From Bacteroidota bacterium (GTDB lineage Bacteria; Bacteroidota; Bacteroidia; UKL13-3), in the NCBI GenBank assembly GCA_027484685.1, contig JAIXSO010000048.1:8477-72476 (forward strand): DNA of 64,000 bases. The letters are read 5' to 3'. Shown here piece by piece: positions 23,647 to 42,423 of the stretch. A model generated the notes under the pieces. It had not been told where the DNA came from. It did no database searches and saw only the letters and a list, made by a program, of their open reading frames with translations. A program made the position numbers and the translations under genes. The stretch's first letter is position 1, and every line of letters begins with the position of its first letter.

Positions 23647-23686
23647 AAAAAACGAAAAGGTTGTCCTTTTGAGACAACCTCTTTTT
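23647..23686 (-). terminator. rho-independent terminator after fumC (possibly bidirectional)
   Basis: 8-bp stem aggttgtc (23658..23665) / gacaacct (23673..23680). The tail is T-rich on the minus strand (tttcgtttttt) and also on the plus strand (ctttttc). Confidence 0.7.
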
Positions 23687-23707
23687 CGGTTATTTAATAT
23701 GTTTCGA

Positions 23708-25102
23708 CTATAAGTTTCCAACCATATTTTCTGGTTTAACCCAAGCGGTAAATTCTTCGCTGGTTAAGTAACCTAACTCTACTGCTGCTTCGCGTAAAGT
23801 TTTGTTTTCTTTATGTGCTTTCTTAGCAATTTTAGCTGCTTTTTCGTAACCAATATGTGGGTTTAAAGCGGTAACCAACATCAATGAATTTTCCAAATGA
23901 CGTTGAATAATATCGTTGTTGGCTTCAATACCAATGGCACATTTATCGTTAAACGAAACGCAAGCATCTCCAATTAAACGTGCACTTTGTAATACGTTTG
24001 CTGCCATAACTGGTTTGAAAACATTTAATTCAAAATGTCCGTTCATGCCACCAACAGTAACTGCCACATCGTTTCCAATAACCTGGGCGCAAACCATGGT
24101 CATTGCTTCTGGTTGTGTTGGATTTACTTTACCTGGCATAATAGATGAACCTGGTTCGTTATCAGGAATGATAATTTCGCCAATACCGCTACGTGGACCA
24201 GAAGATAACATACGGATATCGTTGGCAATTTTCATTAGCGAAACCGCTGTACGTTTCAATGCACCGCTTAATTCAACCATGGCATCATGAGCTGCTAATG
24301 CTTCAAACTTGTTTGGAGCAGTAACAAAAGGAAAGCCTGTAAATTCTGCAATTTTTTTAGCTACCAATACATCATAACCTTTAGGAGCATTTAAACCCGT
24401 TCCTACTGCTGTTCCACCCAAAGCCAATTCTAAAATCATGGTTAGCGCATTATTGATTGCTCTGATGGAGTTATCAATTTGTTGTACATAACCACTAAAT
24501 TCTTGACCTAAAGTTAAAGGCGTAGCATCCATAAAATGGGTTCTACCTGTTTTAACTATGTTCTTAAAATCTTTTGCTTTTTTATCTAAAGTATTGCGCA
24601 ATAAAGTTAAACCTGGCAAAGTAATTTCAACCACCTGCTTGTATGATGCAATGTGCATAGCAGTTGGGAAAGTATCATTACTAGATTGCGATTTGTTTAC
24701 ATCATCGTTTGGATGTAAAACTTTATTTTCGTCTAATAAATTACCACCATTTAAAACATGTGCGCGGTTGGCAATTACCTCGTTTGAGTTCATGTTACTT
24801 TGTGTTCCACTGCCAGTTTGCCAAATTACCAACGGAAACTCTCCATCATGCATTCCAGTTAAAATTTCATCACAAACTTTGCTAATCAAATCGCGTTTTT
24901 CAGCGGGCAATACACCTAAATCGGTATTGGCATGAGCGGCTGCTTTTTTTAAGTAAGCAAATGCGTGAATAATCTCCTTTGGCATGCTAGCCTCTGGACC
25001 AATTTTAAAGTTATTGCGGCTACGCTCTGTTTGTGCACCCCAATATTTTTCGGCAGGTACTTGCACCTCGCCCATGGTATCGTGTTCTATTCTGTATGTC
25101 AT
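23708..25102 (-). CDS. fumC: class II fumarate hydratase
   Basis: 464 aa. Signature [14 protein letters not shown]-terminus [26 protein letters not shown]. Confidence 0.96.
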
Positions 25103-25107
25103 ATTCT

Positions 25108-25273
25108 TGCTTCTAGCCGCTAGCTTCTGGCCGCTGGCTGTTTGTTAATATATTATAATTGTTTTTACTTTTTTAGCTTCTGGCAGCTGGCTAATTTTTA
25201 TTTGTTTAAATTATTTTACTCTTTTCTTAACTAATTTTTTTGGCTAGAGGCTAGCTGCCAGCAGCCAGAGGCA
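25108..25273. repeat. three CTGGC/GCCAGAAGC-type word blocks filling the fumC-pgk spacer
   Basis: Blocks at 25108..25140 (ttgcttctagccgctagcttctggccgctggctg), 25175..25193 (agcttctggcagctggcta) and 25242..25273 (ggctagaggctagctgccagcagccagaggca, opposite orientation). Related blocks at 651..674, 54087..54112 and 57727..57759. Confidence 0.8.
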
Positions 25274-25274
25274 A

Positions 25275-26489
25275 TTAGTTGTTAATGGCAGCTATCCCAG
25301 GTAATTCTTTCCCCTCAAAATACTCAAGCAATGCACCACCACCTGTACTCACATAACTTACTTGGTCTTCAAAGCCAAATTTAGCTACTGCAGCAGCACT
25401 ATCTCCCCCACCAATTAAGCTAAATGCACCATTTTTAGTAGCTTCAACTACTGCAATGGCAACGCTTTTTGTTCCATTTTCAAAATTGCTCATTTCAAAA
25501 ACACCCATTGGACCATTCCACAAAATGGTTTTAGAGTTTTTGATTACATCAGCAAAAGTTTGGCTTGCTTCAGTTCCAATATCTAAACCCATCCAACCGG
25601 TTTCAATTTTATGGTTGCTGCAATTTTTAAAATTAGCATCATTGCCAAATTTATCAGCAACCACCGAATCGGCTGGCAATAAAAGTTTAACGCCTTTGGC
25701 TTCCGCTTTTTTCAATAAATCTAAACAAAGTTCCAATCTATCATCTTCGCAAAGCGATGAACCAATTTCGTAACCTTGCGCCTTTAAAAATGTATAAGCC
25801 ATTCCGCCACCAATAATGATGTTATCAACGCTATTGATTAAATTTTCGATGATTAATAATTTATCAGAAACCTTAGCACCACCTGTAATAGCCGTGAATG
25901 GACGCTCTGCATTTTTCATTACCTTTTCGGCATTAGCAACTTCGTTTGCCATTACATAACCAAAACATTTTTCAGTTGGGAAAAATTGTGCTATAATAGC
26001 AGTACTTGCATGGGCACGGTGTGCAGTTCCAAATGCATCGTTTACATATACATTTCCCAGTTTGCTTAATTTTTCAGCAAAACCCACATCACCTTTTTCT
26101 TCTTCTTTATAAAAACGTAAATTCTCCAATAATAAAATTTCTCCAGCTTTTAAATTAGCTGCTTTATCAATTGCTTCTTGACCTATACAATCATTGGCGA
26201 ACTGAACATTTACACCAAATAATTCAGAAGCAGTAGCAATTACATGTTTTAACGAGTGCTTTTCAAAATCAACTGTTCCGTCTTCTTTTAATTTTTTAAG
26301 TGGGCGACCTAAATGACTCATCAAAATACAAGAACCGCCATCGGCCAATATTTTTTTAATAGTTGGCACTGTAGCACGTATGCGCGCATCGTCAGTTACA
26401 GCAAGCGTTTGTTTGTCTAGTGGCACATTAAAATCAACACGTACAAGTGCTTTTTTACCACTAAAATTAATTGAATCAACTGTTTTCAT
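25275..26489 (-). CDS. pgk: phosphoglycerate kinase
   Basis: From the ATG at 26489: [25 protein letters not shown], the canonical Pgk N-terminus. The 31 extra codons in the track ORF (to 26582) are hydrophobic or low-complexity and not Pgk-like. Confidence 0.95.
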
Positions 26490-26758
26490 GTATTTTATAT
26501 TTTTGATGTTGCGAAAATAGGATTTATACAAAATAAAACTAACGACTAAAATCAGTAAATAGCATTTAAAAGACATGAACAAAAACGTAATTGCTATGAA
26601 ATAGTAATGTAGTAATATTAAATGGAAAGATTAAATTAAAGTAAACATATTTCACTTCATCAATACACTTTAATCTTTTATTATTTAGCACTTTATATTA
26701 ACTAACATTCATTATTAAAAGAATATAAATATGTTTTTGTAATTTTTATAAAATATAA

Positions 26759-27790
26759 ATGACCTACTACATTCTGAAACAACCAACAATTTGGTCCTTA
26801 TTCCATTGAAAACCTTAAACATTATGTAGAAAATGGAAACGTACTTTTGTCGGATATAATAGAGAGTTCAACCAACGAAGAGCTTAATGTGAGGACAATT
26901 TTAAAGATGCAAAATGTAAACTATAAAATAAAAAATAATGGAAGTGTTATCAATCAAATTAAACTTATTGATAAGGATTTAATTATTCCGAAAGTGGATT
27001 TTATAAAGAAGGATATTTTAAACGATAAACGACTCATTTATTTATCATTATTTGGTTTAGCTCCCACATTTTTAATTAAATTTACTTTTAGTTCTTGGTT
27101 TACTTTTTATGCCATTGCATTGTACTTTTCTGCTATTTGGGGAATATTTTTTACTATGTTTTTAAAACCAATCAAGTAAAAACAAAACAACCATTTTACT
27201 TTTTTTTGCAACACAACTCGCAGCTTATTTTTTAGCCAATTTACATCTTTTGCAAGGCATAAGTACATTGTATTCCTTAACCAATTCAGATTCCATTTTT
27301 TTAAGGCTAGTAGGCTTTTTATTTGGTGTTGGCTTACTAGAAGAAACAATTAAAGCACTTCCTAATTTTCTTTATTTTAAAATTATCAAAATAACCACTA
27401 ATACCTCAAACTATAGCATATTATGGATTGATGTCGGGCATTGGTTTTGGAGTGTTAGAAGGCGTTTTATATCAAACTACTTTAAATACAGAATTAGGCT
27501 ATAATGAAGCTTTTTTTATGAATATAGCAAGGCTTACTTCATGGCCATTTTTACGTGCAATTTGGGCTGACGTTTCTGCTTATTTTTTATCACTTGTTTT
27601 TTTGTAACTTTTTAATCGTAAAAGTTTATATGTTTTGACCATAGCTATTCCTACTATTCTTAATGGTTTATACGACACTTTTGGATGAAGTATTTTAGGC
27701 TTGACACCAACCATTATTTCATTAATATTGCTCATATTTTACTTGATGAGAAGTAGCAAATTTCAATCTAAATTTTTAAATAATATATAA
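26759..27790 (+). pseudogene. decayed GYF_2-domain / PrsW-family intramembrane protease gene (at least 3 frameshifts and 2 in-frame stops)
   Basis: The reading frame must be switched near 26778, 27150..27180 and 27385..27395. In-frame TAA at 27605 and TGA at 27686. The pieces read MTYYILK|NNQQFGPYSIENLKHYVENGNVLLSD (GYF_2-like), LLEETIKALP (PrsW EExxK motif), YYGLMSGIGFGVLEGVLYQ and NGLYDTFG*. Confidence 0.65.
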
Positions 27791-27798
27791 CAGTATCA

Positions 27799-28596
27799 AT
27801 GAACGAATTATTACAAACTGCAACAAGCCTTTGGCAAGAAATTACTAATAATCCAGGAACTTCATTAGCAATTATTGGCAATCTAATTATAATAGAAAGT
27901 TTATTGTCGGTAGATAATGCTGCTGTATTAGCAACTATGGTAATGGATCTGCCTAAAGAACAGAGAGATAAAGCTTTAAAATTTGGAATTTTTGGAGCAT
28001 ACTTTTTTCGTGGTTTGGCAATGCTATTTGCTGCCGTTTTAATTAAAATTTGGTGGTTAAAACCATTGGGTGGTCTATACTTATTGTACTTAGTTTACGA
28101 TTGGTATAAAGGAAAACAATCAGAAACAAAAGAAGATGATTTAATAGATAAAAATAGCAACTGGCTTTATAAAATGACGGTTGGCTCTTTGGGCAATTTT
28201 TGGGCTACAGTTTGTTTGGTAGAACTTATGGACATGGCTTTTTCTATTGACAATGTTTTTGCGGCTGTTGCGTTTACGCCTAACATTATTTTGGTATGTA
28301 TTGGAGTATTTATTGGAATTTTAGCAATGAGATTTATTGCCCAATGGTTTGTTAAATTAATGGAAAAATATAACTTCTTAGAAACAGCTGCATTTATTGT
28401 TATTGGTATTTTAGGACTTAAATTATTGTTATCTCTTTACGAACATTTTTACCCAACTAGTTACATTAGCGAATTTTTTGGAAGCCATACTGCTGATATT
28501 GGTATTTCAATTCTAACAGTAGCAATTTTCTTTGTACCTATATTAACCAGTTTATTTTTTAATTGGCCAGCTAAAAGCAAAATCGAAAATGAATAG
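27799..28596 (+). CDS. TerC-family (DUF475-like) integral membrane protein
   Basis: Two SxDN motifs (LLSVDNAAVLATMV and FSIDNVFAAVAF) in a polytopic membrane protein. Confidence 0.8.
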   Translation: MNELLQTATSLWQEITNNPGTSLAIIGNLIIIESLLSVDNAAVLATMVMDLPKEQRDKALKFGIFGAYFFRGLAMLFAAVLIKIWWLKPLGGLYLLYLVYDWYKGKQSETKEDDLIDKNSNWLYKMTVGSLGNFWATVCLVELMDMAFSIDNVFAAVAFTPNIILVCIGVFIGILAMRFIAQWFVKLMEKYNFLETAAFIVIGILGLKLLLSLYEHFYPTSYISEFFGSHTADIGISILTVAIFFVPILTSLFFNWPAKSKIENE

Positions 28597-28945
28597 AGCT
28601 ATTTCTGGATTTCATATCCTATCAATACTTTCAGAGATTGATAACGATTTTAGCCCAAAAGAGGGTTTGGTTATTGTTGACTATTTAAAGAAAAACTTTC
28701 CACCACATTTATTTGTGTTAGATAGAGAAATGGAAATTTTAAGCAATTTAAAAAAAGATGAATATTTAACACATTTTATCAAATGCCTTGAAGAGTTTTA
28801 CAAAGATTCGACCGAGGAAGAAAGGGTAAAGTTTGTAAAATTTGCTATTAAAGTTGTAATGGCTAATAATAAAGTATCTAATGAAGAAAATATTTATTTG
28901 AATGAATTGTACAATGCATGGGCATTAGATAACAATAATTTTTAA
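28589..28945 (+). CDS. TerB-like small soluble protein (tentative)
   Basis: 118 aa. 8-nt overlap with the TerC-family gene. Helical protein with a VMANNKVSNEENIYLNELYN segment resembling the TerB-like fold family. Weak recognition. Confidence 0.45.
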   Translation: MNRAISGFHILSILSEIDNDFSPKEGLVIVDYLKKNFPPHLFVLDREMEILSNLKKDEYLTHFIKCLEEFYKDSTEEERVKFVKFAIKVVMANNKVSNEENIYLNELYNAWALDNNNF

Positions 28946-29040
28946 AATTGGCGTTGATTGCAATAATTGATTAGAATAATTAATCATAAATATTTTTTTC
29001 AAATTTATTACGATGATAGAAATTAATTCATGATCAATCA

Positions 29041-29124
29041 GGAAGAGTTCATTTTTACCAATAAAATAGATGAAATCAACTGTTTTCATCTATTTTATAT
29101 TTTTGCATTGCAAGGTTATACAAA
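29041..29124 (-). pseudogene. relic copy of the pgk promoter-proximal region plus first ~19 codons
   Basis: Ungapped plus-strand alignment at an offset of exactly 2600 nt: 26451..26505 versus 29051..29105 gives about 48/55 identities by eye, including the ATG and MKTVD codons. A further shared ttatacaaa follows an 8-nt indel. The relic frame reads MKTVDFIYFIGKNELFLID versus Pgk [19 protein letters not shown]. Confidence 0.6.
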
Positions 29125-29232
29125 CTTAAATCTAAAATCTAAAAATGGCATTATAAAATATACTTTGGTTATCTTGCTATTAAATAAAAACTATTTTTGT
29201 TTTGCAATCAGCCAATTTTAGCACCTATTCAA

Positions 29233-29910
29233 ATGAAAATTCTTGTACTTGAAGACGACTTTACCCTATCAAAAGAAATTAGACAATTTTTGGTTTCGAA
29301 AGAATTTGAATGCGATGCCATTTACGATGGAAGTTTGGTTATTAAACAGTTGCAAATAGCTCATTACGATTTATTTATATTAGACATCAATGTTCCAGGT
29401 AAAAATGGTTTTGAGGTTTGTAAACAAATTAGATTAGTTGACAAAGAAACTCCTATACTAATGCTTACCGCTTTTGGTGAGGTGAGCGATAAAGTAACTG
29501 CATTTAACAATGGGGCCGATGATTATTTGGTAAAACCATTTCATTTTGATGAACTTTTTGTGCGTATTTCAGCATTGCTACGCAGAAAATCAATGCCACA
29601 ACAAGTAGAAGAAAAAATAACAATAGCTGACTTAGAAATTAATTTAACCGAAAGTAAAGTACACAGAAACGGAAATGAAATTGTGCTTTCGCCAAAGGAA
29701 TATCAGCTATTGATTTTATTAGCAAAAGCTAAGGGTAAATCAATTTCAAAACAAGTAATTGCTGAAACCATTTGGGATTACAACATTGAAACCAATTACA
29801 ATACCATTGAAGTTTATATTAATTTTTTACGCAAAAAAATTGATAAAGACTTTGAACAAAAACTTATTCAAACTAGGCCCGGATTTGGTTACTTTTTAAA
29901 AGCTGAATAA
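29233..29910 (+). CDS. OmpR/PhoB-family response regulator (receiver + winged-helix)
   Basis: From the ATG at 29233: MKILVLEDD. Phospho-acceptor region FILDINVPGKNG, LMLTA, DDYLVKPF. C-terminal winged helix (LSPKEYQLLILL, RPGFGY). The 12 upstream codons in the track ORF are unlikely to be translated. Confidence 0.9.
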   Translation: MKILVLEDDFTLSKEIRQFLVSKEFECDAIYDGSLVIKQLQIAHYDLFILDINVPGKNGFEVCKQIRLVDKETPILMLTAFGEVSDKVTAFNNGADDYLVKPFHFDELFVRISALLRRKSMPQQVEEKITIADLEINLTESKVHRNGNEIVLSPKEYQLLILLAKAKGKSISKQVIAETIWDYNIETNYNTIEVYINFLRKKIDKDFEQKLIQTRPGFGYFLKAE

Positions 29911-29912
29911 TT

Positions 29913-31280
29913 ATGACTATAAAACAGAAAATTGCGCTTTATAGTAGCTTGTTTTTTTCACTTCTTTTTGGGCTTACCTCCATTATTATTTATTATCAAT
30001 TCTCTAATTTTAGAGAAGAAGAATTTAAGGAACGGCTGGAGGAAAAAGCCATTAATACCATGAAACTTTTAGCAGAAGTACAAGAGGTGGATAATACTTT
30101 ATTACAATTGATTGATAAAAACTCTATTCATAAGCTTTACAATGAAAAAACATTGATATTCAATGATAGTTTACAGCTCATATATAGTAGTGTGGACGAT
30201 GTTGTTATTAATTGGACAGTAGATGATTTAAAAAAGCTGAAAAAAGAAAAAACTTTATTTAAAACTGAAGGCGAATATGAAATTTTTGGTATTTATTACG
30301 TCTCACAACATATTGACTATTATGCCCTCATTTCGGCACAAGATAAATATGGAAAAAGAAAATTGCAGTTTTTGAGTGTAGTTCTAACTATTTCTTTTTT
30401 GATAGCAACATCCATTATTTGGTTGGTATCTTTTAATTTCACCAAACGATTAATTTTACCACTTGACAATTTTCAGAAAAAAATTACCAATATCAGCTCA
30501 AATAACTTAACCGAACGCCTTGCAGAAACAGGTAAAGATGATGAGATTAACTTAATAGCAAAGGCGTTTAACCAAATGATGAGGAGAATTGAAGATTCGT
30601 ACAAAAACCAGCAAGAGTTTACAGCCAATGCATCGCACGAGCTACGAACTCCTATAGCCCGAATAATTACACAATTAGAAAATCTTGAACAGTTAGAAAA
30701 ACATAGTGCTGAAACGCTAACTTATCTTCAGAATATAAAAACTGACGCCAATAATATGGCAGAGTTAATTAGCTCGCTGCTTACACTTTCCAAAATTTCG
30801 GAAACACAGATAGATTTTACTAATAATAAAAAACGTATTGATGAAATTATCTTTGATTCAATGGCTTTGGTAAAGAAAAATTATCCTGATTTTTCGAGTG
30901 GTTTTGAACTTATTGAAAACAACGAATTTGAATATGATTTAGATATTTTTTGCAATGAGTCTTTACTTAAAATAGCATTTTCTAATTTGATTAAAAATGC
31001 CTATTTGTATTCAGCCAATAAAAAAGCTTTGATAGAGATAGAGCAAATCAATACCAATCAAATCGCAGTAAGAATAAAAAACAATGGCAATACCATTGAA
31101 AATTCAGAACAGCACAAGCTTTACGATACTTTTATGCGTGGCAAAAACTCTCAAAATAAACCTGGTTCAGGATTGGGTTTACCATTAAGCAAACGCATTT
31201 TTAACTACCATAATGCCACTTTAAATTATTCGGTTACTGGCCAGAATTTAAACCAATTCGAAATTATTTTTTCTATTTAA
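29913..31280 (+). CDS. sensor histidine kinase
   Basis: Two transmembrane helices flanking a periplasmic domain, a HAMP-like linker, H-box ASHELRTPIARI, and an HATPase G-box (GSGLGLPLSKRI). Confidence 0.9.
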   Translation: MTIKQKIALYSSLFFSLLFGLTSIIIYYQFSNFREEEFKERLEEKAINTMKLLAEVQEVDNTLLQLIDKNSIHKLYNEKTLIFNDSLQLIYSSVDDVVINWTVDDLKKLKKEKTLFKTEGEYEIFGIYYVSQHIDYYALISAQDKYGKRKLQFLSVVLTISFLIATSIIWLVSFNFTKRLILPLDNFQKKITNISSNNLTERLAETGKDDEINLIAKAFNQMMRRIEDSYKNQQEFTANASHELRTPIARIITQLENLEQLEKHSAETLTYLQNIKTDANNMAELISSLLTLSKISETQIDFTNNKKRIDEIIFDSMALVKKNYPDFSSGFELIENNEFEYDLDIFCNESLLKIAFSNLIKNAYLYSANKKALIEIEQINTNQIAVRIKNNGNTIENSEQHKLYDTFMRGKNSQNKPGSGLGLPLSKRIFNYHNATLNYSVTGQNLNQFEIIFSI

Positions 31281-31357
31281 GCTATTTTTAAGGCTTGATT
31301 TAAGCACTATTTAAGAAGCACCAACTCATCTTTGTTGCGTAATTAAGCGTAATTGAT

Positions 31358-32605
31358 ATGAGATATAGCTTTTTGTTTTGTATATTTTTTTTAATTGGTG
31401 GTTTGCAAGCACAGCAAACTTATACAGTTGAAGAATGCGAAAACCAGTTTTTAAAAAATAACCTTTTACTGGTGGCCGAACAGTTTGATGTAGATGCATC
31501 GAAGGCTGCTATTATTCAAGCAAAGGTTTGGGATAATCCTTATGTGTCGGGCGAAATAAATTTATACAACCCCAACAACCAACAATATTTTGATGTAGGA
31601 ACTGCTGGGCAAAAAGCATTTGCTATTCAGCAATTGATTTACCTAAGTGGTAAAAGAAGTAATGAAATAGCTTTAGCCAAAACCAATAGTGCCATGGCTC
31701 AATTGCAATTTGAAGATGCATTACGCAATTTAAGAGCCACACTCAAACAAAGTTTTTATACCATTTATTTCGATAGCAGAAAAATAGATATTACATCTAA
31801 ACAACTTTCGAACCTAGACTCGGTAATACAAGCCTATAACGGACAAGCCATGAAAGGCAATGTGCCCATGAAAGATTTGGTAAGGCTACAATCGTTATAC
31901 TTTAGCTTAAAAAACGATAAAACCATTTTGGTTCAAAACTTAACCGATGAAATGCAAAAACTTAAAGTGTTAACTGGCCAATCGACAGATATTGTTCCTG
32001 TTATTACAAATTTAAATAAATACTTTTCTGCAAAAAAAATAGAAACCCTTTCGGAAGATACATTGATAAAAATAGCCGCAGAAAATAGGCCTGATTATTT
32101 ATTAGCTATAAAAAATATAGAAAGTAATGAATTTAACTTACAACTTCAAAAAGCCATTGCCAGACCAGATTTAACCCTTGGAACCGCTTATGATCAAAGA
32201 GGTGGCGCATTTAACAATCAAATTAACTTAACTTTTGGTATGCCATTACCTGTTTGGAACAAAAATAAAGGCAATATAAAAATAGCCGAAATTCAGGTAA
32301 AACAAGCCAAAACATTAGAAAACTATGCCTTACTCCAACTTAAAAATGAAGTAAGTGCCACTTATAAAAAATGGATTGAGGCCAATAATAATTACCAGTT
32401 TTTAACCAAATCGAATACTGCCAGTTTTGAGCAGGTTTATCAAGGAGTAATGTTCAATTTTAAAAAACAAAATATTACCATTTTAGAGTTTACCGATTTT
32501 ATGGAAAGCTATAACCAAAGTATTCAAAATTTTAACGAAATAAATAAAGTGCTCATTCTATCGAGCGAAGAATTAAATAAGGCCCTTAACAAACAAGTAT
32601 TTTAG
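31358..32605 (+). CDS. czcC: TolC/CzcC-family outer-membrane efflux protein
   Basis: Signal peptide, 415 aa, two-repeat coiled-coil/beta-barrel OEP pattern. It is the first gene of a C-B-A ordered efflux operon. Confidence 0.8.
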   Translation: MRYSFLFCIFFLIGGLQAQQTYTVEECENQFLKNNLLLVAEQFDVDASKAAIIQAKVWDNPYVSGEINLYNPNNQQYFDVGTAGQKAFAIQQLIYLSGKRSNEIALAKTNSAMAQLQFEDALRNLRATLKQSFYTIYFDSRKIDITSKQLSNLDSVIQAYNGQAMKGNVPMKDLVRLQSLYFSLKNDKTILVQNLTDEMQKLKVLTGQSTDIVPVITNLNKYFSAKKIETLSEDTLIKIAAENRPDYLLAIKNIESNEFNLQLQKAIARPDLTLGTAYDQRGGAFNNQINLTFGMPLPVWNKNKGNIKIAEIQVKQAKTLENYALLQLKNEVSATYKKWIEANNNYQFLTKSNTASFEQVYQGVMFNFKKQNITILEFTDFMESYNQSIQNFNEINKVLILSSEELNKALNKQVF

Positions 32606-32606
32606 T

Positions 32607-33695
32607 ATGTTTAATAAATCAATATTATTTGTAGCAAGTATGTTAGTAGTTACACTTTACTCGTGTAGCGATAACAAAAAAAAGGAAGAAACAGCCACTG
32701 CTTTTGTATTAAGTGATGTAATGTTAAGCACTACGCAAACAGCGCCCGCCAGAAGCATGCCTTTAAAAAACGAGCTGTCATTTTATGGGAAAATTACTGC
32801 CGACAATAACAAGTTAATTGAGATATATCCAATTGTGGGCGGTAATGTTATGAATGTGAATGTAGAGCTTGGCGATTATGTTACCAAAGGACAAGTTTTA
32901 GCTAGCATTAGAAGTACTGAAGTAGCCAGTTTTGAAAAAGATTTGATTGATGCTAAAAACGATGTATTAGTAGCTAAAAACAGTGTAAAAGTGGCCCAAG
33001 AACTTTTTGAAGGTAAATTAAACTCTGAGCGCGATGTATTAGAGGCCAAAAGTCAACTAGAAAAAGCCGAAAGTCAATTGCACAGGATCAAGGAAGTTTA
33101 TAGCATTTACAATATCAAAAAAGGAGCTTTTTACAATGTATTAGCACCTATCAGTGGTTTTATTATTCAAAAAAATATTAACCAAGATATGTTATTACGC
33201 AGTGATAGGACTGACAATATTTTTGACATTGCACAAATAAATGAAGTATGGGCTATAGCCAATGTGAACGAAACAGACATTAACCAAGTTAAATTAGGTG
33301 AAGAAGCTTCGGTTACTACATTAAGTTATAACGATAAAGTTTTTAAAGGCAAGGTTGATAAAATATTTAACATCATTGACCCTGAAACCAAAGCCATGAA
33401 AGTTCAAATAAAACTGAACAACCCTGATTATTTATTGAAACCCGAAATGAGAGCTAATATTAAACTATCGTATAACGAAGACAAAAATATGATTGCCATA
33501 CCATCGGCTGCTATCATTTTTGATAAAAATAAAAACTTTGTAATGGTATTTAAAGATAGAAATAATATTGAGACCCGACAAGTAGAAGTATTTAGGCAGG
33601 TGGGCGATATTAGCTACATATCGGCAGGATTAAAAGTTGACGAAAAGGTTATGACTACCAACGGCCTTTTGGTTTACAATGCACTAAATAACTAA
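32607..33695 (+). CDS. czcB: efflux RND periplasmic adaptor (membrane fusion) subunit
   Basis: Lipobox LYSC. Lipoyl-like (VELGDYVTKGQVLASI), coiled-coil hairpin and beta-barrel segments typical of HlyD/CzcB adaptors. Confidence 0.88.
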   Translation: MFNKSILFVASMLVVTLYSCSDNKKKEETATAFVLSDVMLSTTQTAPARSMPLKNELSFYGKITADNNKLIEIYPIVGGNVMNVNVELGDYVTKGQVLASIRSTEVASFEKDLIDAKNDVLVAKNSVKVAQELFEGKLNSERDVLEAKSQLEKAESQLHRIKEVYSIYNIKKGAFYNVLAPISGFIIQKNINQDMLLRSDRTDNIFDIAQINEVWAIANVNETDINQVKLGEEASVTTLSYNDKVFKGKVDKIFNIIDPETKAMKVQIKLNNPDYLLKPEMRANIKLSYNEDKNMIAIPSAAIIFDKNKNFVMVFKDRNNIETRQVEVFRQVGDISYISAGLKVDEKVMTTNGLLVYNALNN

Positions 33696-33750
33696 GAGGT
33701 TTTGACCAACCAATTCATAAAAAAATTTTAATTCATAAACAGTAAGTATA

Positions 33751-36700
33751 ATGAATAAGCTCATTAAAAGTATTCTATCATTTTCGTTAAAAAACAAAGC
33801 GTTTACGTTTTTTGGCGTGATAGTTCTAGTCATATCAGGATTTATTGCTTTTAAAAATATGCCTATTGAGGCATTTCCCGATGTTACCAATACGCAAATA
33901 GTAATTATAACCCAATGGAACGGGCGCAGTGCCGAAGAAGTAGAGCGTTTTGTTACCACACCTATTGAACTTTCGATGGGTTCGGTTCAGAAAAAAACAA
34001 GTGTGCGTAGCACTACCATGTTTGGTTTATCTATTATAAAAATAATTTTTGAGGATAATGTAGATGATTTATTTGCCAGAAACCAAGTAAATAACCAACT
34101 AAGAACGGTATCACTACCCGATGGAATAGACCCTGAAGTACAACCACCATACGGACCAACAGGTGAAATTTTTAGATACACTTTAAAAAGTGACTCACGC
34201 GATTCGAGGGAATTATTAACCATTCAAAATTGGGTTATTGATAGACAGTTACGTTCTGTTCCTGGTGTGGCAGATATCAATGTTTTTGGTGGACAACAAA
34301 AGGTATTTGAATTAAGTGTTGACCCTAATAAATTAGAAAAATACGACCTCACTCCTCTTCAAGTTTATGATGCTGTAAATAAAAGTAATTTAAACGTTGG
34401 TGGCGATGTAATTGAAAAAAGTGGTCAATCGTATGTAGTACGTGGTTTAGGTTTGTTACAATCTATTCCTGATATTGAAAATATTATTGTAGATCAAAAT
34501 AATGGTAACCCAGTATTGGTAAAAAATTTAGCCAATGTTACTGAAAGTTCTTTACCACGCGTTGGTCAAGCTGGATTAAATAACCAAGATGATGTGGTAG
34601 AAGGAATTATAGTAATGCGTAAGGGTGAAAATCCTAAAGAAGTGCTTGCTCGTGTTAAAGCCAAAATTGATGAAATAAACGAACGCATTTTACCCAAAGA
34701 TGTAAAAATGGAAACATTTTACGACAGGGACAATTTGATGAATTATACCACATCAACGGTGATGCATAATATGTTTGAAGGAATATTATTTGTTACCGTC
34801 ATTGTATTTTTATTCATGGCCGATTGGCGTACTACTGTTACTGTTTCTATTATTATTCCTTTATCATTATTGTTCGCCTTTTTGTGCTTAAAATTAAAAG
34901 GAATGAGTGCTAATTTACTGTCGCTAGGAGCAGTTGATTTTGGTATTATTATAGATGGGGCTGTGGTAATGGTAGAGGGCATATTTGTAACTCTCGATCA
35001 CTTGGCACATAAAAAAGGAATGGTGGCCTTTAATAAGTTATCGAAAGGGCAAATAATTAAAAAGACTGGCACCTCATTAGGTAAAGCCATTTTCTTTTCA
35101 AAACTAATTATCATCACCGCCTTATTACCCATTTTTGCTTTTCAAAAAGTAGAAGGTAAAATGTTCTCGCCATTGGCTTATACCTTAGGTTTTGCCTTAT
35201 TAGGAGCATTGTTATTTACCTTAACTTTAGTGCCTGTATTGTGCCATATTTTCTTAAATAAAAATGTAAAGGAAAAACACAATCCTTTTGTTAACTTTTG
35301 GAATAAATTAGTGGAGAATGGCTTTAACTGGACTTTTAAACACAAACGTTTAACCCTTATTGTTTCATTGCTATTGATATTCTCAACTTTCTTTTCGACT
35401 AAGTTTTTAGGAACAGAATTTTTACCTCAATTAAACGAAGGTTCGCTATGGATTACCGCTGAAATGCCTTTGAGCACTTCACTTGATAAATCAATGATTA
35501 CCACCAATAAGTTAAAAGCCATTTTACAATCGTTTGACGAAGTAAATGGTGTGCTATCGCAAACAGGAAGGAGTAATGATGGAACCGACCCTAATGGATT
35601 TGGATTTGTGCAGTTTCAGGTAAATTTAAAACCTAAAGAAGAATGGGCACGTAAAATAACCCAAGACCAGCTTATTGATGAAATGGATAAAAAGTTAAAA
35701 CAATATCAAGGTATAACTTACAATTATTCTCAACCTATTGCCGATAATGTTTCAGAGGCAGTGGCAGGTTTTAAAGCATCTAACGGTGTTAAAATTTATG
35801 GCGATGATTTGAATAAACTAAACGATTATGCCAACCAAGTTTTAAAAACCATCAAAAATATAGATGGAATAAAAGATGCTGGTATTATTAGAAACATTGG
35901 TCAACCTGAGTTGAGCGTAATTTTAGACAGAGAAAAAATGGCTGCCTATGGTGTAACCATTGCCGATGCGCAAGCTGTATTAGAAATGGCTTTTGGCGGT
36001 AAAACTGCTACTCAAAAATTTGAAGGTGAACGCAAGTTTGATGTAAGGATTAGGTACGAAAAAGAATACCGCAAAAACGAAAAAGACATTGCCAACCTAA
36101 TGGTGCCAACACTTAACAATACCAAAATTCCTTTAAAAGAAATTTCGGTTATTGATAAAGACAATGGCGCTGCCTTTATTTATAGAGATAATTTAAAACG
36201 TTTTATTGGTGTTAAATTTTCTATTAGAGATAGAGATTTGGGAAGTACCATAGCCGAAGCACAACAAAAAGTTTCGCAAAATATTCAATTGGCCGCAGGA
36301 TATGACATTGGTTGGACTGGCGAGTTTGAAAACCAAGTAAGGGCCACAGGAAGCTTAACCGAAATGGTTCCCATTAGCTTAGTAGGTATTTTTATTTTGT
36401 TATTTATACTTTTTGGTAATATAAAAGATTCGTTATTAGTATTAGCCAATGTGCCCTTCGCTATTGTTGGAGGTATTTTGGCTCTACATATTACCGGAAT
36501 GAACTTTGGAATTTCGGGCGGTGTGGGCTTCATAGCTTTATTTGGAATTTGTATTCAAAATGGGGTGCTACTTATATCGGAGTTTCATAAAAATTTAAAA
36601 GACAAGTTAAATTTAGAAACATCTATAAAAGAAGCCGTAAAAGTGCGCACCCGCCCGGTAGTTATGACTGCGTTAATGGCTTCTATTGGTTTATTACCTG

Positions 36701-36852
36701 CAGCTATTAGCACTGGTATTGGTTCAGAATCTCAAAAACCATTGGCCATTGTAATAATTGGTGGATTGATAACTGCCATCATTTTAACTTTATTGGTATT
36801 TCCTATTATATTTTGGGTGTTTAACCGCAACAAACATGAGGTTATTGATTAA
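33751..36852 (+). CDS. czcA: CusA/CzcA-family heavy-metal efflux RND permease
   Basis: 1033 aa with 12-TM RND architecture. N-terminus IKSILSFSLKNK...PIEAFPDVTNTQIVIITQWNGRSAEEVERFVTTPIE is typical of the HME-RND family. Confidence 0.92.
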   Translation: MNKLIKSILSFSLKNKAFTFFGVIVLVISGFIAFKNMPIEAFPDVTNTQIVIITQWNGRSAEEVERFVTTPIELSMGSVQKKTSVRSTTMFGLSIIKIIFEDNVDDLFARNQVNNQLRTVSLPDGIDPEVQPPYGPTGEIFRYTLKSDSRDSRELLTIQNWVIDRQLRSVPGVADINVFGGQQKVFELSVDPNKLEKYDLTPLQVYDAVNKSNLNVGGDVIEKSGQSYVVRGLGLLQSIPDIENIIVDQNNGNPVLVKNLANVTESSLPRVGQAGLNNQDDVVEGIIVMRKGENPKEVLARVKAKIDEINERILPKDVKMETFYDRDNLMNYTTSTVMHNMFEGILFVTVIVFLFMADWRTTVTVSIIIPLSLLFAFLCLKLKGMSANLLSLGAVDFGIIIDGAVVMVEGIFVTLDHLAHKKGMVAFNKLSKGQIIKKTGTSLGKAIFFSKLIIITALLPIFAFQKVEGKMFSPLAYTLGFALLGALLFTLTLVPVLCHIFLNKNVKEKHNPFVNFWNKLVENGFNWTFKHKRLTLIVSLLLIFSTFFSTKFLGTEFLPQLNEGSLWITAEMPLSTSLDKSMITTNKLKAILQSFDEVNGVLSQTGRSNDGTDPNGFGFVQFQVNLKPKEEWARKITQDQLIDEMDKKLKQYQGITYNYSQPIADNVSEAVAGFKASNGVKIYGDDLNKLNDYANQVLKTIKNIDGIKDAGIIRNIGQPELSVILDREKMAAYGVTIADAQAVLEMAFGGKTATQKFEGERKFDVRIRYEKEYRKNEKDIANLMVPTLNNTKIPLKEISVIDKDNGAAFIYRDNLKRFIGVKFSIRDRDLGSTIAEAQQKVSQNIQLAAGYDIGWTGEFENQVRATGSLTEMVPISLVGIFILLFILFGNIKDSLLVLANVPFAIVGGILALHITGMNFGISGGVGFIALFGICIQNGVLLISEFHKNLKDKLNLETSIKEAVKVRTRPVVMTALMASIGLLPAAISTGIGSESQKPLAIVIIGGLITAIILTLLVFPIIFWVFNRNKHEVID

Positions 36853-37183
36853 TCTTAAATCATTCTAGAAATAAGCTAAATCAAGCATTCAATGATATTG
36901 GACGATTAATTAAATATAAGAAAGACATTAGTTGCTAAAATTATAAACCCAAACCGCTTTAGACAAAATTAAAGTGTTTTGGGCTTAAAAAGTAGATTAA
37001 AGAAAACACAAACCATGGACTAAATTCGAACTAAAAACGGACAAAATACCAACACTTTGCAAAATTGAAAGGGAAACAAGGGCAACCAAAAGTCAACCAA
37101 ATTTGCTTCAAGTTTTATTTTGCCCAATCACATACTCAACATACAAACTGATAGAAAAAAATGTTTTAAAAAAATTGCTAAAA

Positions 37184-37486
37184 ATGCCTAACAACACATC
37201 CCAACATATTTTAAATACCTCTGCCAATCTTTTAGGATTTTGCCTTGTGGTAATAACCGCACTTCATGTGAATGACCAAACCGAGACAACAATCATAGAC
37301 ATGTTAACTGCTTTTGTAGCCTTGTTGCTTACATTTTCATGTTTGTTTTCTTTTATCTCCATCAGGTCAGAAAATGCTAGAATTGAAATGAGGTTTGAGA
37401 CAATTGCAGATTACTTATTCTTCATATCTCTGACTGGCATACTATCAATAATCACTCTTATTTTACATAACTACATAAACAAATAA
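37184..37486 (+). CDS. small three-helix membrane protein, unknown function
   Basis: ATG at 37184 (MPNNTSQHILNTSANLLGFCLVV...). The track ORF starts at a TTG 27 codons upstream, which I consider less likely. Confidence 0.4.
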   Translation: MPNNTSQHILNTSANLLGFCLVVITALHVNDQTETTIIDMLTAFVALLLTFSCLFSFISIRSENARIEMRFETIADYLFFISLTGILSIITLILHNYINK

Positions 37487-37491
37487 CAAAA

Positions 37492-38112
37492 ATGAAAACA
37501 CTTAATAAAACAATCGCTTTGCTATCAATCTGCATTTTGACAGGTTGTGCAAGTACACAAATTTTCAGCGATAAAGATGATGCTATTGACTTTAATAAAT
37601 ATAAAACATTTGCTTGGCTACCTACAGGTAATTTTAGCTATGGAAACGGTTTTGATAACCAAATAATTGAAAGTAATATTAAAACCCATGCTTCTAACTT
37701 ATTAGAGTTAACTTGGCTAAAAGCTGATACAATTGCCCCTGATTTACTTTTTGAATACCACATTGAATTTAAAAATAAAACCATTATAGAGCAGCAACCA
37801 ATATATAATTATAACTACAATAATGGTATGTATTATTATGGCAGATACAATTATAACAGATACTATGGTTATGATCCTTATTGGCGACACAGCAACATGA
37901 ACTCGCCATATATAATAGGTTATAAAAATGTTCCTGTTACTTATAAAGAAGGAACTTTGTTAATATCTGCAATTGACCGAAATACAAACAAATTAGTTTG
38001 GCGAGGATGGTCTGTTAGCACAGTTACAGATACTAATACATACGAACAGGAATTAAAAAAATATGTTACAAAAATTTTTTATAAGTTTCCAATCCAAATC
38101 CCAACGAAATAA
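37492..38112 (+). CDS. DUF4136-like lipoprotein
   Basis: Lipobox ILTGC. N-terminal DFNKYKTFAWLP and C-terminal GTLLISAIDRNTNKLVWRGWS resemble the DUF4136 pattern as recalled. Confidence 0.55.
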   Translation: MKTLNKTIALLSICILTGCASTQIFSDKDDAIDFNKYKTFAWLPTGNFSYGNGFDNQIIESNIKTHASNLLELTWLKADTIAPDLLFEYHIEFKNKTIIEQQPIYNYNYNNGMYYYGRYNYNRYYGYDPYWRHSNMNSPYIIGYKNVPVTYKEGTLLISAIDRNTNKLVWRGWSVSTVTDTNTYEQELKKYVTKIFYKFPIQIPTK

Positions 38113-38114
38113 AT

Positions 38115-38669
38115 ATGAAAAAAATAATTTCAATTTTTGGGGTTTGCTTTTTTGTGCTTAACTTTTTAAATGCTCAAACTTCACGCAACTGCAAAGTTTT
38201 AATATCAACCAAGTTTAATGATTCATTATATACCGTTGTATCTAAAGCAGCAACACTAACCTTTAATTTGGCTACAAACAACCTGACCTTAAAACTCAAA
38301 CTCCAATCATTAGACCATGAAATTGATACGATTGAAAATTTCTTTAATCAATACCAACCATCAGACGAATTAATATATATGGCTAACACTGGTAACAATG
38401 TTTTTGATTTGATTGAAAGCGAAGCCAACAGAAATAAAATATATCCCTTGTCAGGAAATTTGACTTTGAACTCAATTTCAAAAGGAGTTGAAGGAACTTA
38501 CTCCTTGCTAAAACTTACAAACGAAAGCCAAGATACTAAACTTAATTTACGCTTTAGTTTAGATTTATCTTTTAACCCCATTGATTTTGGCATTAATAAA
38601 ATTTTCCCTTTGTTAAATCAAAAGGTTTATATCGAAATTGATGAAGCAATTGTAAACATAATTGAATAA
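38115..38669 (+). CDS. secreted hypothetical protein
   Basis: Signal peptide (FLNAQ). Starts 2 nt after the previous stop. No family recognised. Confidence 0.45.
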   Translation: MKKIISIFGVCFFVLNFLNAQTSRNCKVLISTKFNDSLYTVVSKAATLTFNLATNNLTLKLKLQSLDHEIDTIENFFNQYQPSDELIYMANTGNNVFDLIESEANRNKIYPLSGNLTLNSISKGVEGTYSLLKLTNESQDTKLNLRFSLDLSFNPIDFGINKIFPLLNQKVYIEIDEAIVNIIE

Positions 38670-38959
38670 AATGAAATATAGAATATCGATTTTCATGTTA
38701 ACACTTATGTTATAAATTTTAAACAAGTCGAGGAATTACAATTTTCTTTCTTGCACTCGCTAGCGTAACACTAGTGAGTGTATCATTAAGCCTCTGGCTG
38801 ATTAAAGTAATCCCTAATTTGGATTTGTTGTTTGATTTTTCCAATCTTTTATAAGACAAAATGTACTTATTGCAGGTGTTTATACGCATTGTGAATGCTC
38901 ATAAGAACTATATGTTTAGCAACAAAACAATCATAAAAATGATTACAATAATTTAACTA

Positions 38960-39658
38960 TCAACATATCATCATTAACCTAGTTTCTCCTGCTTTTTCCT
39001 TTGGTGCTCTATGCACACATGGAAACACTTTGCTTTCAGGATGGTCAATTGCTAATCGCCATAAATTACCAATACCTAGGCTAATGGGTTGTGCATTTGG
39101 TTTTTCTTGGTAATGTAAATCAAAAAAGTGCTTACTTAAAAATGCTTCAAATCCCTCCTCTGCTCCTTCATATAGTTTTTTGAGTTCATTGCGAATTTCT
39201 GGAATAAGAATTTTTTGTTGCCCCTGTTCATTAGGCAATATTTGGCTTGGTTCACCATAATACGTGCACAAAAAAGTATCTACAGCAATTGGAGATCTGT
39301 CTACATGATAAGAATAAACATCGGTTGGAAAGAATGGAAAATCATCATCTCTATTGTAATATTTAATCAAATTTAGAGTTGGTATTGCTCCATGAACTTT
39401 TAACAGCGTTAAATCATCAATCAGTATTTGACGAGCAAGTTGCCCTTGCTCACTTAATATAAGTTCATTTAAATCGGTTTCATCAATAGCTACTATATTA
39501 TCTTTAAAGGCTATCTTATTTACTATTTCCGAAAAATCTCCTAATAAATTTCGTTTCCAACAAATAGCATTTATGTTGCCTTGGAAAGGCGTTAAAGTAA
39601 GTTCTTGAAAATTAGCAACACAATGAATTTGATTGTAAGCCTGAGATAAATTGAACAT
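38960..39658 (-). CDS. DUF1826-like protein (tentative)
   Basis: The segments YHVDRSPIAVDTFLCTYYGEPSQIL and CVHRAPKEKAGETRLMMIC resemble the DUF1826 conserved blocks as I recall them. Confidence 0.4.
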   Translation of the reverse strand: MFNLSQAYNQIHCVANFQELTLTPFQGNINAICWKRNLLGDFSEIVNKIAFKDNIVAIDETDLNELILSEQGQLARQILIDDLTLLKVHGAIPTLNLIKYYNRDDDFPFFPTDVYSYHVDRSPIAVDTFLCTYYGEPSQILPNEQGQQKILIPEIRNELKKLYEGAEEGFEAFLSKHFFDLHYQEKPNAQPISLGIGNLWRLAIDHPESKVFPCVHRAPKEKAGETRLMMIC

Positions 39659-39714
39659 AATGATTTAAAGTAAATAATGAAACGAAAGTAATACCAATTG
39701 CATTTATAAAATAA

Positions 39715-42353: not shown

Positions 42354-42390
42354 AATAAAAGAATATTGTTAAACCTTATTTATACTTTTG

Positions 42391-42423
42391 CCACTTCGCA
42401 TTCCGCACTCCGAACTCCGCATT
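42391..42423. repeat. GCGGAGT-type word repeat in the spacer between the 708-aa and 219-aa genes
   Basis: ccacttcgcattccgcactccgaactccgcatt (coding strand: aatgcggagttcggagtgcggaatgcgaagtgg). Confidence 0.6.

Follow-up and report, generated by a model that had tools for sequence, protein, structure and literature searches.

Results

Organization of the Locus

The host is a freshwater bacterium, and the locus was analyzed within a 64-kb stretch of its DNA, hereafter called the window. In the window, pgk is followed by a first copy of a 145-nt segment, D (D_A, 26433-26577), by an insert, X (26578-29032), by a second copy of D (D_B, 29033-~29163) and by a response-regulator gene. The individual features are as follows:

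23708-25102, minus strand: fumC, downstream of pgk
25275..26489, minus strand: pgk, intact, 404 aa (Pfam PGK, E 4.7e-153)
26433..26577, minus strand: D_A, the functional copy of D (145 nt), comprising pgk codons 1-19 and an 88-nt conserved upstream (promoter/5′UTR) block
26578..26758, plus strand: leader of insert X, AT-rich (G+C 0.17)
26759..27796, plus strand: pseudogene of a PrsW-family intramembrane protease, colinear with the intact PrsW (345 aa) of locus L165
27799..28596, plus strand: gene for a TerC/YkoY-family membrane protein, intact, 265 aa (PF03741, E 4.9e-50)
28589..28945, plus strand: gene for a TerB-like protein, intact ORF, 118 aa (PF05099, 21.3 bits)
28925..29089, minus strand: 54-aa relic ORF with pgk-derived start codons, overlapping the 3′ end of terB in antisense
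28946..29032, strand not assigned: trailer of insert X, following the TerB-like gene
29033..~29163, minus strand: D_B, a decaying relic of the pgk upstream block and codons 1-19, cut off at codon 19
29164..29232, plus strand: R, the original upstream region of the response regulator, which aligns colinearly with the L170-L172 empty site
29233-29910, plus strand: OmpR-type response regulator (Pfam)
29913-31280, plus strand: HAMP/HisKA histidine kinase (Pfam), followed by a TolC-MFP-RND efflux operon

D_A is continuous with pgk and is near-identical both to the single copy of D in L170-L172 and to L162. The right edge of D_B runs straight into the upstream region of the response regulator, which contains a TAnnTTTG box at 29192-29199 that is kept in L172 (at 1439); both copies of D contain such a box on the plus strand. 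The gene order RR-HK-OEP-MFP-RND is repeated in L174 and L175. Since another locus (L081) is 100% identical to the window over 23657-30328, and contigs of two more samples (runs X2 and X3) cross both junctions without a difference, the D-X-D arrangement is real and no assembly artefact.

The Repeat at the pgk Start

The original prediction had placed a duplicate of the pgk start 2600 nt away, with 48 of 55 positions identical by eye, and the computed alignment returned the same figures: 48/55 identities between 26451-26505 and 29051-29105, in direct orientation and exactly 2600 nt apart. The ungapped repeat reaches 73 nt (26433-26505 against 29033-29105; 59/73, or 81%), and a gapped alignment carries the homology on to ~26577 and ~29163. 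Past an indel, the further shared motif that had been noticed is indeed present in both copies (TTATACAAA). The 32-nt core around the ATG differs by a single base between the copies and has two matches in the window vs. 0.00 expected (100 shuffles), and the pair is the only direct repeat of at least 40 nt in the 64 kb. Among 179 fetched loci, the core was found solely at the pgk starts of the closest relatives. The homology between pgk and the relic reaches 57 nt into the pgk coding sequence. D_B is thus a pgk-derived relic, whose coding start and upstream block are homologous to those of pgk, colinear with them and similar beyond chance. Two doubts attached to the original prediction, that the similarity might not be significant or that the core might be dispersed upstream of unrelated genes, are both removed by these counts.

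The AT-rich composition is the one property that would suit a dispersed promoter or leader module, or an assembly chimera, in place of a pgk relic. We rejected this explanation, to which we give practically no probability, on the strength of the copy number in the window (two vs. none expected), the confinement of the core to pgk starts, the 57 nt of coding homology and the contigs from independent samples that cross both junctions.

The predicted relic frame was also recovered, as an ORF of 54 aa (28925..29089) that starts MKTVDFIYFIGKNELFLID and matches the Pgk start at 11 of 19 residues. It had no Pfam match, and a further strain with the cassette has a substitution in the ATG (29089 T>G). 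We judge this ORF to be a by-product and no gene.

The Insert Is the Tail of a ter Cluster

X measures 2455 nt, which together with the second 145-nt D makes a total addition of 2600 nt. Three genes on the strand opposite to pgk had been expected between the two copies, and a PrsW-family pseudogene, a TerC gene and a TerB-like gene, all on the plus strand, do lie there; of the label GYF-PrsW given to the first, the PrsW part stands, while the GYF part is weak (a weak GYF_2 match in an intact PrsW orthologue). Stress-response clusters of the ter (tellurite-resistance-associated) type reportedly contain TerD, VWA/TerY, a PP2C phosphatase and a Ser/Thr kinase (Anantharaman, Iyer and Aravind, 2012). 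In relatives, the cluster runs TerD...TerY-PP2C-kinase-PrsW-TerC-TerB, and in L166, L167, L168, and L176 the order ...TerY-PP2C-Pkinase-PrsW-TerC-TerB is accompanied by an overlap of the kinase stop with the PrsW start. Judged by this colinearity with the last three genes of ter clusters in related Bacteroidota, X is the 3′ tail of such a cluster (PrsW-TerC-TerB). The cassette of the original prediction is thus no mobile unit but the end of a much larger gene cluster. TerD, TerY/VWA, PP2C and kinase genes, which lie upstream of PrsW in L166, L167, L168, and L176, were found nowhere in the 64-kb window. With TerC and TerB families present (TerB by the scores of its orthologues), these genes missing and PrsW inactive, the window holds no functional ter system.

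The closest relative of X is L165, with 87.9% identity over 2210 nt and a dS of 0.62, compared with a species-level dS of 0.59 (pgk) or 0.57 (regulator). The G+C content of X, for which a contrast with the flanks had been suggested, is 0.278 vs. 0.30-0.31 in the response-regulator and histidine-kinase genes. Because X shares the low G+C of the regulator side and its distance to L165 equals the species-level one, it bears no sign of an origin outside this group of lineages.

The three genes have fared differently. The window PrsW retains 85% nucleotide identity to the intact PrsW of L165, relative to which it carries at least four frameshifts, at ~26764 (-5), 27148 (-1), 27188 (-1) and 27363 (+1), and at least three in-frame stops; more indel variants were seen among strains. 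Intact PrsW orthologues match PF13367 at E 1e-19, and by these lesions the window copy is a dead gene. TerC, at 92.5% amino acid identity to L165 and a dN/dS of 0.07, is under purifying selection. The TerB-like protein of the window reaches 21.3 bits and so falls short of the Pfam cut-off (24.4), which its orthologues in L165, L166, and L168 exceed, at 26-27 bits. Nearly all of the amino acid change in TerB since the split from L165 falls on the window branch, on which the gene is fast-evolving.

The ends of X gave fewer matches. The leader (26578-26758) matches neither a fetched locus nor the window, nor the 3′ end of the kinase gene that lies before PrsW in full ter clusters; the sole stretch resembling L165 is the ~16 nt before the PrsW ATG. 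For the trailer (28946-29032), no counterpart was found in what follows TerB in L165, L166, L176, and L177, in any other locus, in the window or in the kinase C-terminus. A second copy of PrsW-TerC-TerB was not found in the 64-kb window.

One way to obtain a junction between terB and codon 19 without foreign DNA is a tandem duplication from pgk codon 19 rightward to a ter cluster, the duplication joint being followed by an internal deletion between D_A and PrsW. This account requires a plus-strand ter cluster to the right of the regulator, of which there is none in the 35 kb on that side; moreover, the duplication would have to exceed 35 kb, and the later deletion, stopping shortly before PrsW, would have to exceed 32 kb. 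We consider it quite improbable.

The Empty Site and Related Loci

An empty site, with pgk directly adjacent to the response regulator, was to be expected in related genomes if X had been inserted, and it is present in L170-L173 (four contigs from four samples), where pgk is directly divergent from the regulator and has one 5′ region. It was found through read mapping and regulator homologues, not through Pgk homologues. The empty-site lineage is a close relative (Pgk 96.5% and response regulator 95% identical; for pgk vs. L172, dN 0.020 and dS 0.59), and its divergence from the window is equal on both flanks (dS 0.59 for pgk, 0.57 for the regulator). The empty-site sequence equals D_A from pgk to ~26572-26577 and the right flank of D_B from ~29160 on, and D_B aligns to it across the whole of D. 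Junction contigs from two further runs agree: one in run X4 (46x) joins window position 26569 to 29155, the cassette coverage there being ~5x, and one in run X5 (23x) has the same junction, with a loose end that reads the empty-site D into 29155. Since these relatives carry the predicted empty site, the insertion proposed originally is supported. In the ancestor shared with L170-L173, pgk (minus strand) and the regulator (plus strand) were thus divergent neighbors.

Searches with Pgk gave a different set of loci. In genome contigs they yielded 80 loci, at none of which does pgk adjoin TerC, TerB, PrsW or the orthologous regulator; in the closest of them (L001, 94%), the upstream gene is miaA. 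Among the matches listed from metagenome contigs, none was closer than 71% identity. The closest Pgk homologues (L162, L163, and L164) have a 220-aa gene or miaA as upstream neighbor and no empty site. Relatives at ~80% Pgk identity have unrelated neighbors on both sides of pgk, and in ~170 other pgk loci there were no ter genes and no relic nearby.

In four different contexts, synteny breaks at the edge of the pgk upstream block, which could be taken as the mark of a mobile element or a site-specific recombinase (a transposon or an integrative island) the genes of which later disappeared. In agreement with the original prediction, however, the ORF list and Pfam revealed no recombinase, transposase or integrase ORF. 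X has no terminal inverted repeats and no copy elsewhere in the 64 kb, and no Rfam family (riboswitch, tRNA or other) matched in 25000-30500, tRNAs being covered by the Rfam models. A sigma-70 promoter and terminator scan, with a model unsuited to Bacteroidota promoters, gave background levels. Target duplications made by transposases are typically 2-15 bp, far shorter than the 145 bp found here, and the variable neighbors on both sides of pgk in more distant relatives point to general shuffling. An origin of this kind is very improbable.

The same synteny break allows a more speculative thought, namely that the edge of the block (about -90 to -97) may be a preferred capture point, independent of any recombinase, for promoter-less operon fragments with a long target duplication. 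Operons running rightward would thereby get their own copy of a bidirectional promoter, as the plus-strand TAnnTTTG box in both D copies would suit, and D_B might be partly kept by gene conversion, by antisense transcription into terB/terC or as a second promoter of the regulator. We hold this to be decidedly doubtful. The unrelated neighbors on both sides of pgk in the relatives at ~80% weaken the idea of a hotspot.

Decay of D_B and Age of the Event

Over 130 aligned sites, 27 changes are specific to D_B, 8 to D_A and 3 to the empty site. D_B has 27-29 private substitutions per 130 sites (Jukes-Cantor distance 0.25) and a net deletion of 13 nt. The neutral distance per lineage since the split from the empty-site lineage, taken from synonymous sites, is ~0.29. 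Because the ~0.25 accumulated by D_B approaches this value, the relic would have been drifting for most of that time and the event is probably old, dating from soon after the split, with the 130 sites as the basis of the estimate. The differences in D_B are unevenly spread, with one mismatch at most over 31 nt (P about 0.003), which pure neutral decay would not predict, and gene conversion could be the cause.

The proximity of the D_B branch (0.25) to that of the whole lineage (0.29) would also suit an insertion just before the split. The cassette state would then be ancestral, and the empty site of L170-L173 would reflect later deletion of X by recombination between D_A and D_B, which direct repeats of 145 nt can mediate. 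Yet L170-L172 have a single D without any of the ~28 private changes or the 13-nt net deletion of D_B, so that the crossover must pre-date nearly all of the decay. The ~170 other pgk loci without ter genes or a relic nearby also speak against an ancestral cassette, as does the need for two events vs. one. This alternative is improbable, and insertion of X in the window lineage is the reading followed below.

Discussion

In the current study, we characterized a filled and an empty version of the same pgk locus. The explanation that we consider probable, with good confidence, is an old, recombinase-independent insertion of a ter tail, X, with duplication of the 145-nt D. In the ancestor, ~157 nt separated the pgk ATG from the MKILVLEDDF start of the regulator. 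The window lineage then gained 2600 nt, made up of the 2455 nt of X and a second copy of the 145-nt target. The copy proximal to pgk, D_A, kept pgk whole, and for this reason an essential gene could tolerate an insertion within its 5′ end. The distal copy, D_B, lost its gene body and entered near-neutral drift. Following the insertion, PrsW decayed, TerC was kept under purifying selection, and the TerB-like gene sped up.

We infer that the event did not involve a recombinase and was either assisted by homology or caused by template switching. Our tentative preference, held at somewhat less than even confidence, is homology-assisted capture through the pgk/D homology, in which conspecific DNA with a ter tail already abutting the pgk upstream block would have been taken up. 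Such DNA could have been a circular molecule that integrated by a single crossover (Campbell type), or a linear fragment joined at one homologous and one illegitimate joint, in the manner of homology-facilitated illegitimate recombination (HFIR); either would yield D-X-D. A donor or intermediate, whether pgk-D-X without D_B or a circular molecule of D and X, was not found in the searched collections. The sites that could discriminate are few: at two of them D_A equals L162 while D_B equals the empty site, and others point the other way, in that D_A and D_B share a T5 run and one C vs. the empty site. With 8 differences, the opening 150 nt of pgk show no unusual divergence, and a sliding comparison gave no signal of a mosaic pgk with a donor-derived 5′ part. 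The original prediction held that the incoming segment supplied a replacement 5′ end and displaced the original one; the insertion itself is borne out by the empty site, while the symmetry of D-X-D, with its few mixed sites, makes such a replacement indistinguishable from a 145-bp target duplication during insertion.

Template switching of the MMBIR/FoSTeS type is a possible but rather unlikely alternative. A stalled fork would leave the pgk 5′ region, use a ter tail in the same cell as template for 2455 nt and return 145 nt behind its exit, so that a single event without a donor would make both junctions and the duplication, and no pre-existing junction between D and X would be required. The cargo fits, being an arbitrary piece of a larger operon without mobility genes, and X stands about as far from its nearest relative as host genes do from theirs (dS 0.62 vs. 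0.57-0.59). A redundant copy would also account for the decay of PrsW and the acceleration of TerB. Against this route, the 64-kb window holds no second PrsW-TerC-TerB copy, and neither the leader nor the trailer of X has a match, which leaves any microhomologies at the junctions unreadable.

The preferred route, homology-assisted capture, has counterparts among known systems. In Escherichia coli, single-crossover integration occurred more often than true HFIR, and it duplicated 109-950 bp of the homologous segment (PMC3240628). The insert is likewise flanked there by direct copies of the shared segment, as X is by D_A and D_B with one D at the empty site, and the 145 bp seen here fall within the experimental range. 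The present event differs in being ancient and natural, with one copy since decayed, and no circular intermediate, plasmid or donor is known for it. HFIR makes its first joint within a homologous anchor, a role that pgk/D could serve here, and its second through microhomology over a few nucleotides. Non-homologous cargo thus enters beside the anchor without a recombinase gene, and the end of the recipient gene could stay beyond the insert. HFIR usually deletes, rather than duplicates, recipient DNA between its two joints (PMC3240628). At the joint between the terB trailer and codon 19, the trailer matches nothing that could serve as a donor flank. It is treated in PMC5361080 with reference to transformable bacteria (de Vries and Wackernagel, 2002; Prudhomme et al., 2002; Meier and Wackernagel, 2003, as cited there), and has been put forward to explain displaced "orphan" gene ends (PMC5361080). 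In the orphan ends of T6SS effector-immunity and Rhs/CDI loci, an incoming module with a replacement end pushes the old end and its neighbors aside as a relic (PMC5361080). There, variable 3′ toxin ends are involved, they evolve under diversifying selection, and the events recur, whereas here a single event affected the 5′ end of a housekeeping gene and brought unrelated cargo. Transposons and insertion sequences likewise duplicate target sequence around the insert, but over 2-15 bp vs. 145 bp, and the transposase and inverted repeats are missing here. An integrase-mediated genomic island is also a poor match, as there is no tyrosine or serine recombinase and no Rfam match for a tRNA att site in 25000-30500, and the G+C content is 0.278 vs. 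0.30-0.31.

The locus is an ordinary rearrangement of a known kind, and it is well documented. It offers a clean natural example, with filled and empty sites, of how, with no obvious help from a mobile element, a piece of an operon can lodge within the 5′ end of an essential gene, which is saved by a duplicated promoter-plus-start segment. For annotation, neither the 54-aa "MKTVD..." ORF, a relic, nor the PrsW fragments, a pseudogene, should be counted as a gene. As an internal clock, the relic suggests that TerC has long been retained while PrsW decayed, and TerC may therefore be of value to this bacterium independently of the rest of the ter system.

Results

The start region of pgk is present twice in the window. 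The original estimate of about 48 identities in 55 between 26451-26505 and 29051-29105 proved exact in a computed alignment (48/55), and the ungapped repeat extends over 73 nt (26433-26505 vs. 29033-29105; 81% identity, spacing 2600 nt). Within a 32-nt core around the start codon the copies differ by one base; this core has two matches in the window, as against none in 100 dinucleotide-preserving shuffles. Since the repeat is the sole direct one of at least 40 nt in the 64-kb window, and since among 179 fetched loci only the closest relatives have the core, and only at their pgk starts, a dispersed promoter module is excluded. An assembly artefact is ruled out by Logan contig L081, which is 100% identical to the window over 23657-30328, and by contigs from two additional samples (runs X2 and X3) that cross both junctions with no differences.

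The original prediction implied an empty site, with pgk adjoining the response regulator in relatives. None was seen in the genome collection or beside the closest Pgk homologues: upstream of pgk lies miaA in L001, L163, and L164 (Pgk 93-94% identical) and a gene for a 220-aa membrane protein in L162 (96%). The site was revealed by contigs from public sequencing runs aligned to the window. One run X4 contig, at depth 46, links window 26569 to 29155, omitting 2585 nt; in this run depth is 17-86 over pgk and the regulator genes vs. ~5 over the inserted genes. A 23x contig of run X5 enters at 29155, preceded by TTACGACTAAAATCAGTAAATGGTATTTTA, the terminal part of a pgk upstream block. Searching for response-regulator homologues led to P0241 (95% identical), found on four contigs from four different samples (L170-L173); in these, pgk (minus strand) is directly divergent from the regulator-kinase operon and only one pgk 5' region is present. 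The predicted adjacency thus exists in relatives, and X4 and X5 contain the same junction. That this arrangement arose by secondary deletion is quite improbable. Runs X4 and X5 are freshwater metagenomes from one study, with a cassette-less relative at 23-46x and a cassette-bearing strain at ~5x over window 24500-31000; no abundant second copy of the inserted genes at 85% likeness or more aligned to the cassette in either run.

Colinearity of the empty-site sequence with the window extends from pgk across the pgk-proximal copy (D_A) to ~26572-26577 and resumes at ~29160, continuing into the regulator upstream region (R), while the distal copy (D_B) can be aligned to it across the entire duplicated segment. 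The window order is therefore pgk, D_A, insert X, D_B, R, regulator, and X plus one D measures 2600 nt, the spacing of the repeat.

Features of the locus (window coordinates)
25275-26489, minus strand: pgk, with fumC downstream
26433-26577: D_A, 145 nt
26578-29032: X, 2455 nt, with a 181-nt leader (G+C 0.17) and an 87-nt trailer
26759-27796, plus strand: PrsW-family protease pseudogene, colinear with the intact 345-aa PrsW of L165 (85% nucleotide identity)
27799-28596, plus strand: TerC (TerC/YkoY family; PF03741, E 4.9e-50)
28589-28945, plus strand: TerB-like, 118 aa (Pfam TerB 21.3 bits, under the gathering score of 24.4)
29033 to ~29163: D_B, 131 nt

Segment D consists of pgk codons 1-19 and an 88-nt upstream block, presumably the pgk promoter and 5' UTR, which is also conserved in L162 and partly in L001, L163, and L164. 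The upstream edge of this block (~-88 to -97) is a synteny break in four contexts, namely miaA (L001 ~9910), the 220-aa gene (L162 ~9905), the regulator (L172 ~1410), and the ter tail (window ~26572-26582); the shared break may be due to short spacers between genes together with selection on the promoter. Candidate Bacteroidota-type -7 boxes (TAnnTTTG) occur on the plus strand in both D copies (26498-26505 and 29098-29105) and nearest the regulator (29192-29199), the last conserved in L172; the empty-site D, with one extra T, has no plus-strand TAnnTTTG box. On the minus strand (29118-29125), the relic has a perfect predicted box, TAAGTTTG, with TTATTTTG at the corresponding place in the functional copy.

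The three genes foreseen between the copies on the strand opposite to pgk were all identified, on the plus strand; with the leader and trailer, which had no match among all available sequences searched, they make up X. The "badly decayed GYF-PrsW pseudogene" was correctly seen as decayed and as PrsW, with four frameshifting indels (~26764, 27148, 27188, and 27363) plus three or more in-frame stops; the GYF label corresponds only to a weak GYF_2 match (E 0.021) in the intact orthologue. Single-base indel variants are found within it among cassette-bearing strains (27069, 27191, and 27295; runs X4 and X6), one at a homopolymer bearing a window frameshift. PrsW is dead, and its decay is ongoing and strain-specific. 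TerC has a dN/dS of 0.07 relative to L165, and the window branch carries only modestly more change. Almost all amino-acid change in TerB-like since the L165 split lies on the window branch (~0.09 vs. ~0.01), in agreement with its fall below the Pfam threshold, which its orthologues in L165, L166, and L168 clear (26-27 bits). Our reading is that TerC is probably kept for a function of its own and that the remainder of the ter tail would be dispensable without the upstream system.

Changes in D were counted against the empty-site copy over 130 aligned sites. D_B has 27 private substitutions and a 13-nt net deletion relative to the empty site, and at two further sites no two of the three sequences agree; D_A has eight private changes and the empty-site copy three. 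D_A is thus the constrained, functional copy, and D_B is drifting. The relic ATG is altered in another cassette-bearing strain (29089 T>G; X4, ~5x) and further relic positions vary in run X6; the 54-aa relic ORF is therefore free of coding constraint. Differences between the D copies are clustered, leaving a 31-nt stretch around the ATG (26474-26505/29074-29105) with at most one mismatch (P ~0.003 by shuffling); gene conversion between the copies could account for this. Coding constraint as its cause was rejected, the relic ATG being mutated in another strain. The D_B branch (~0.25, Jukes-Cantor) is to be compared with ~0.29 per lineage, from dS values between the window and empty-site lineages of 0.59 (pgk) and 0.57 (regulator), and suggests that the duplication dates to soon after these lineages split, a rough figure from 130 sites. 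The histidine kinase (29913-31280 vs. L171 911-2278) has a dS of about 1.5 and dN of 0.069 relative to the empty-site lineage, and the adjacent regulator is much less diverged (dS 0.57, dN 0.025).

In L162 (6363-10000), genes for FabG, a 691-aa protein, and the 220-aa membrane protein directly adjoin pgk. Since their window homologues lie at 41694-45419 (minus strand; region compared, 29164-45419), the entire RR-HK-TolC-MFP-RND block, with DUF4136, DUF1826-like, and transglutaminase-like genes (~12.5 kb), also separates them from pgk relative to L162. In relatives whose Pgk is ~80% identical, pgk is flanked on each side by unrelated genes.

Discussion

In relatives L166, L167, L168, and L176, PrsW-TerC-TerB is not a separate unit; these genes form the 3' end of a >10-kb cluster ordered TerD-TerD-VWA-VWA-...-TerY(VWA+TerY_C)-PP2C-protein kinase-PrsW-TerC-TerB, in which the stop of the kinase and the start of PrsW overlap. 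No upstream ter-cluster genes occur within the window. The duplicated bounds of the original "2.6-kb cassette" stand; X is a fragment of a larger ter cluster, not a mobile cassette. The closest copy of the trio is in L165 (87.9% identity over 2210 nt); the homology starts 16 nt ahead of the PrsW ATG and ends at the terB stop. The L165 contig reaches only 92 nt upstream of PrsW (1-92), and this stretch is non-coding rather than a kinase 3' end; the trio may already be detached from the ter cluster in L165 too. In L166 (11454-20798), genes for DUF6804, SNase, and LRR/FtsK-gamma proteins come after the full cluster, along with a BREX system (BrxA, BrxB, BrxC); the ter cluster there thus has a defence-island-like neighbourhood.

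TerC is separated from that of L165 by a dS of 0.62, about the distance of host genes to the empty-site lineage, and the trio has a G+C of 0.278, like the regulator side; the likeliest source of X is thus this lineage group itself rather than a distant donor. Divergence from the empty-site lineage is equal on both flanks, and it is not unusual in the first 150 nt of pgk. No mark was seen in these regions of import of part of pgk from a distant donor.

As originally noted, no recombinase or transposase ORF was seen in X or its surroundings, nor were terminal inverted repeats or an Rfam match, and a duplication of 145 bp is ~10 times as long as those made by transposases. A lost mobile element is accordingly very hard to credit. 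A circular molecule with D and X that entered the chromosome by one crossover would give D-X-D; so would a linear fragment with a homologous joint in pgk and an illegitimate joint at codon 19, as in homology-facilitated illegitimate recombination (HFIR). In E. coli conjugation experiments aimed at HFIR, most recombinants were single crossovers with 109-950 bp duplications of the homologous segment (PMC3240628), and HFIR has been proposed as the origin of displaced "orphan" gene ends at T6SS and Rhs loci (PMC5361080). We tentatively lean towards such homology-assisted capture, by the circular or the linear route, although both presuppose a donor with the ter tail already joined to the pgk upstream block, and none was found. 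Template switching, in which a fork would copy the cell's own ter tail and return 145 nt behind its exit point, dispenses with a donor but requires the genome to contain a source copy at another locus, and we regard it as possible though rather doubtful. Tandem duplication followed by deletion is improbable. The original prediction that an insertion supplied a replacement 5' end and displaced the original is borne out by the empty site as to the insertion; the few D sites informative on which copy was incoming conflict with one another.

By the tests applied, the locus qualifies neither as a transposon or integrative island nor as a functional ter system. Its footprint belongs with recombinase-independent insertions that duplicate a homologous or target segment, and the cargo of X with the ter clusters, a known gene neighbourhood. 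The case itself is new and well supported; its event type is known, and it is not a new mechanism. Its value lies in a documented pair of filled and empty sites, and the annotation of the relic ORF and of the PrsW pseudogene is to be corrected.
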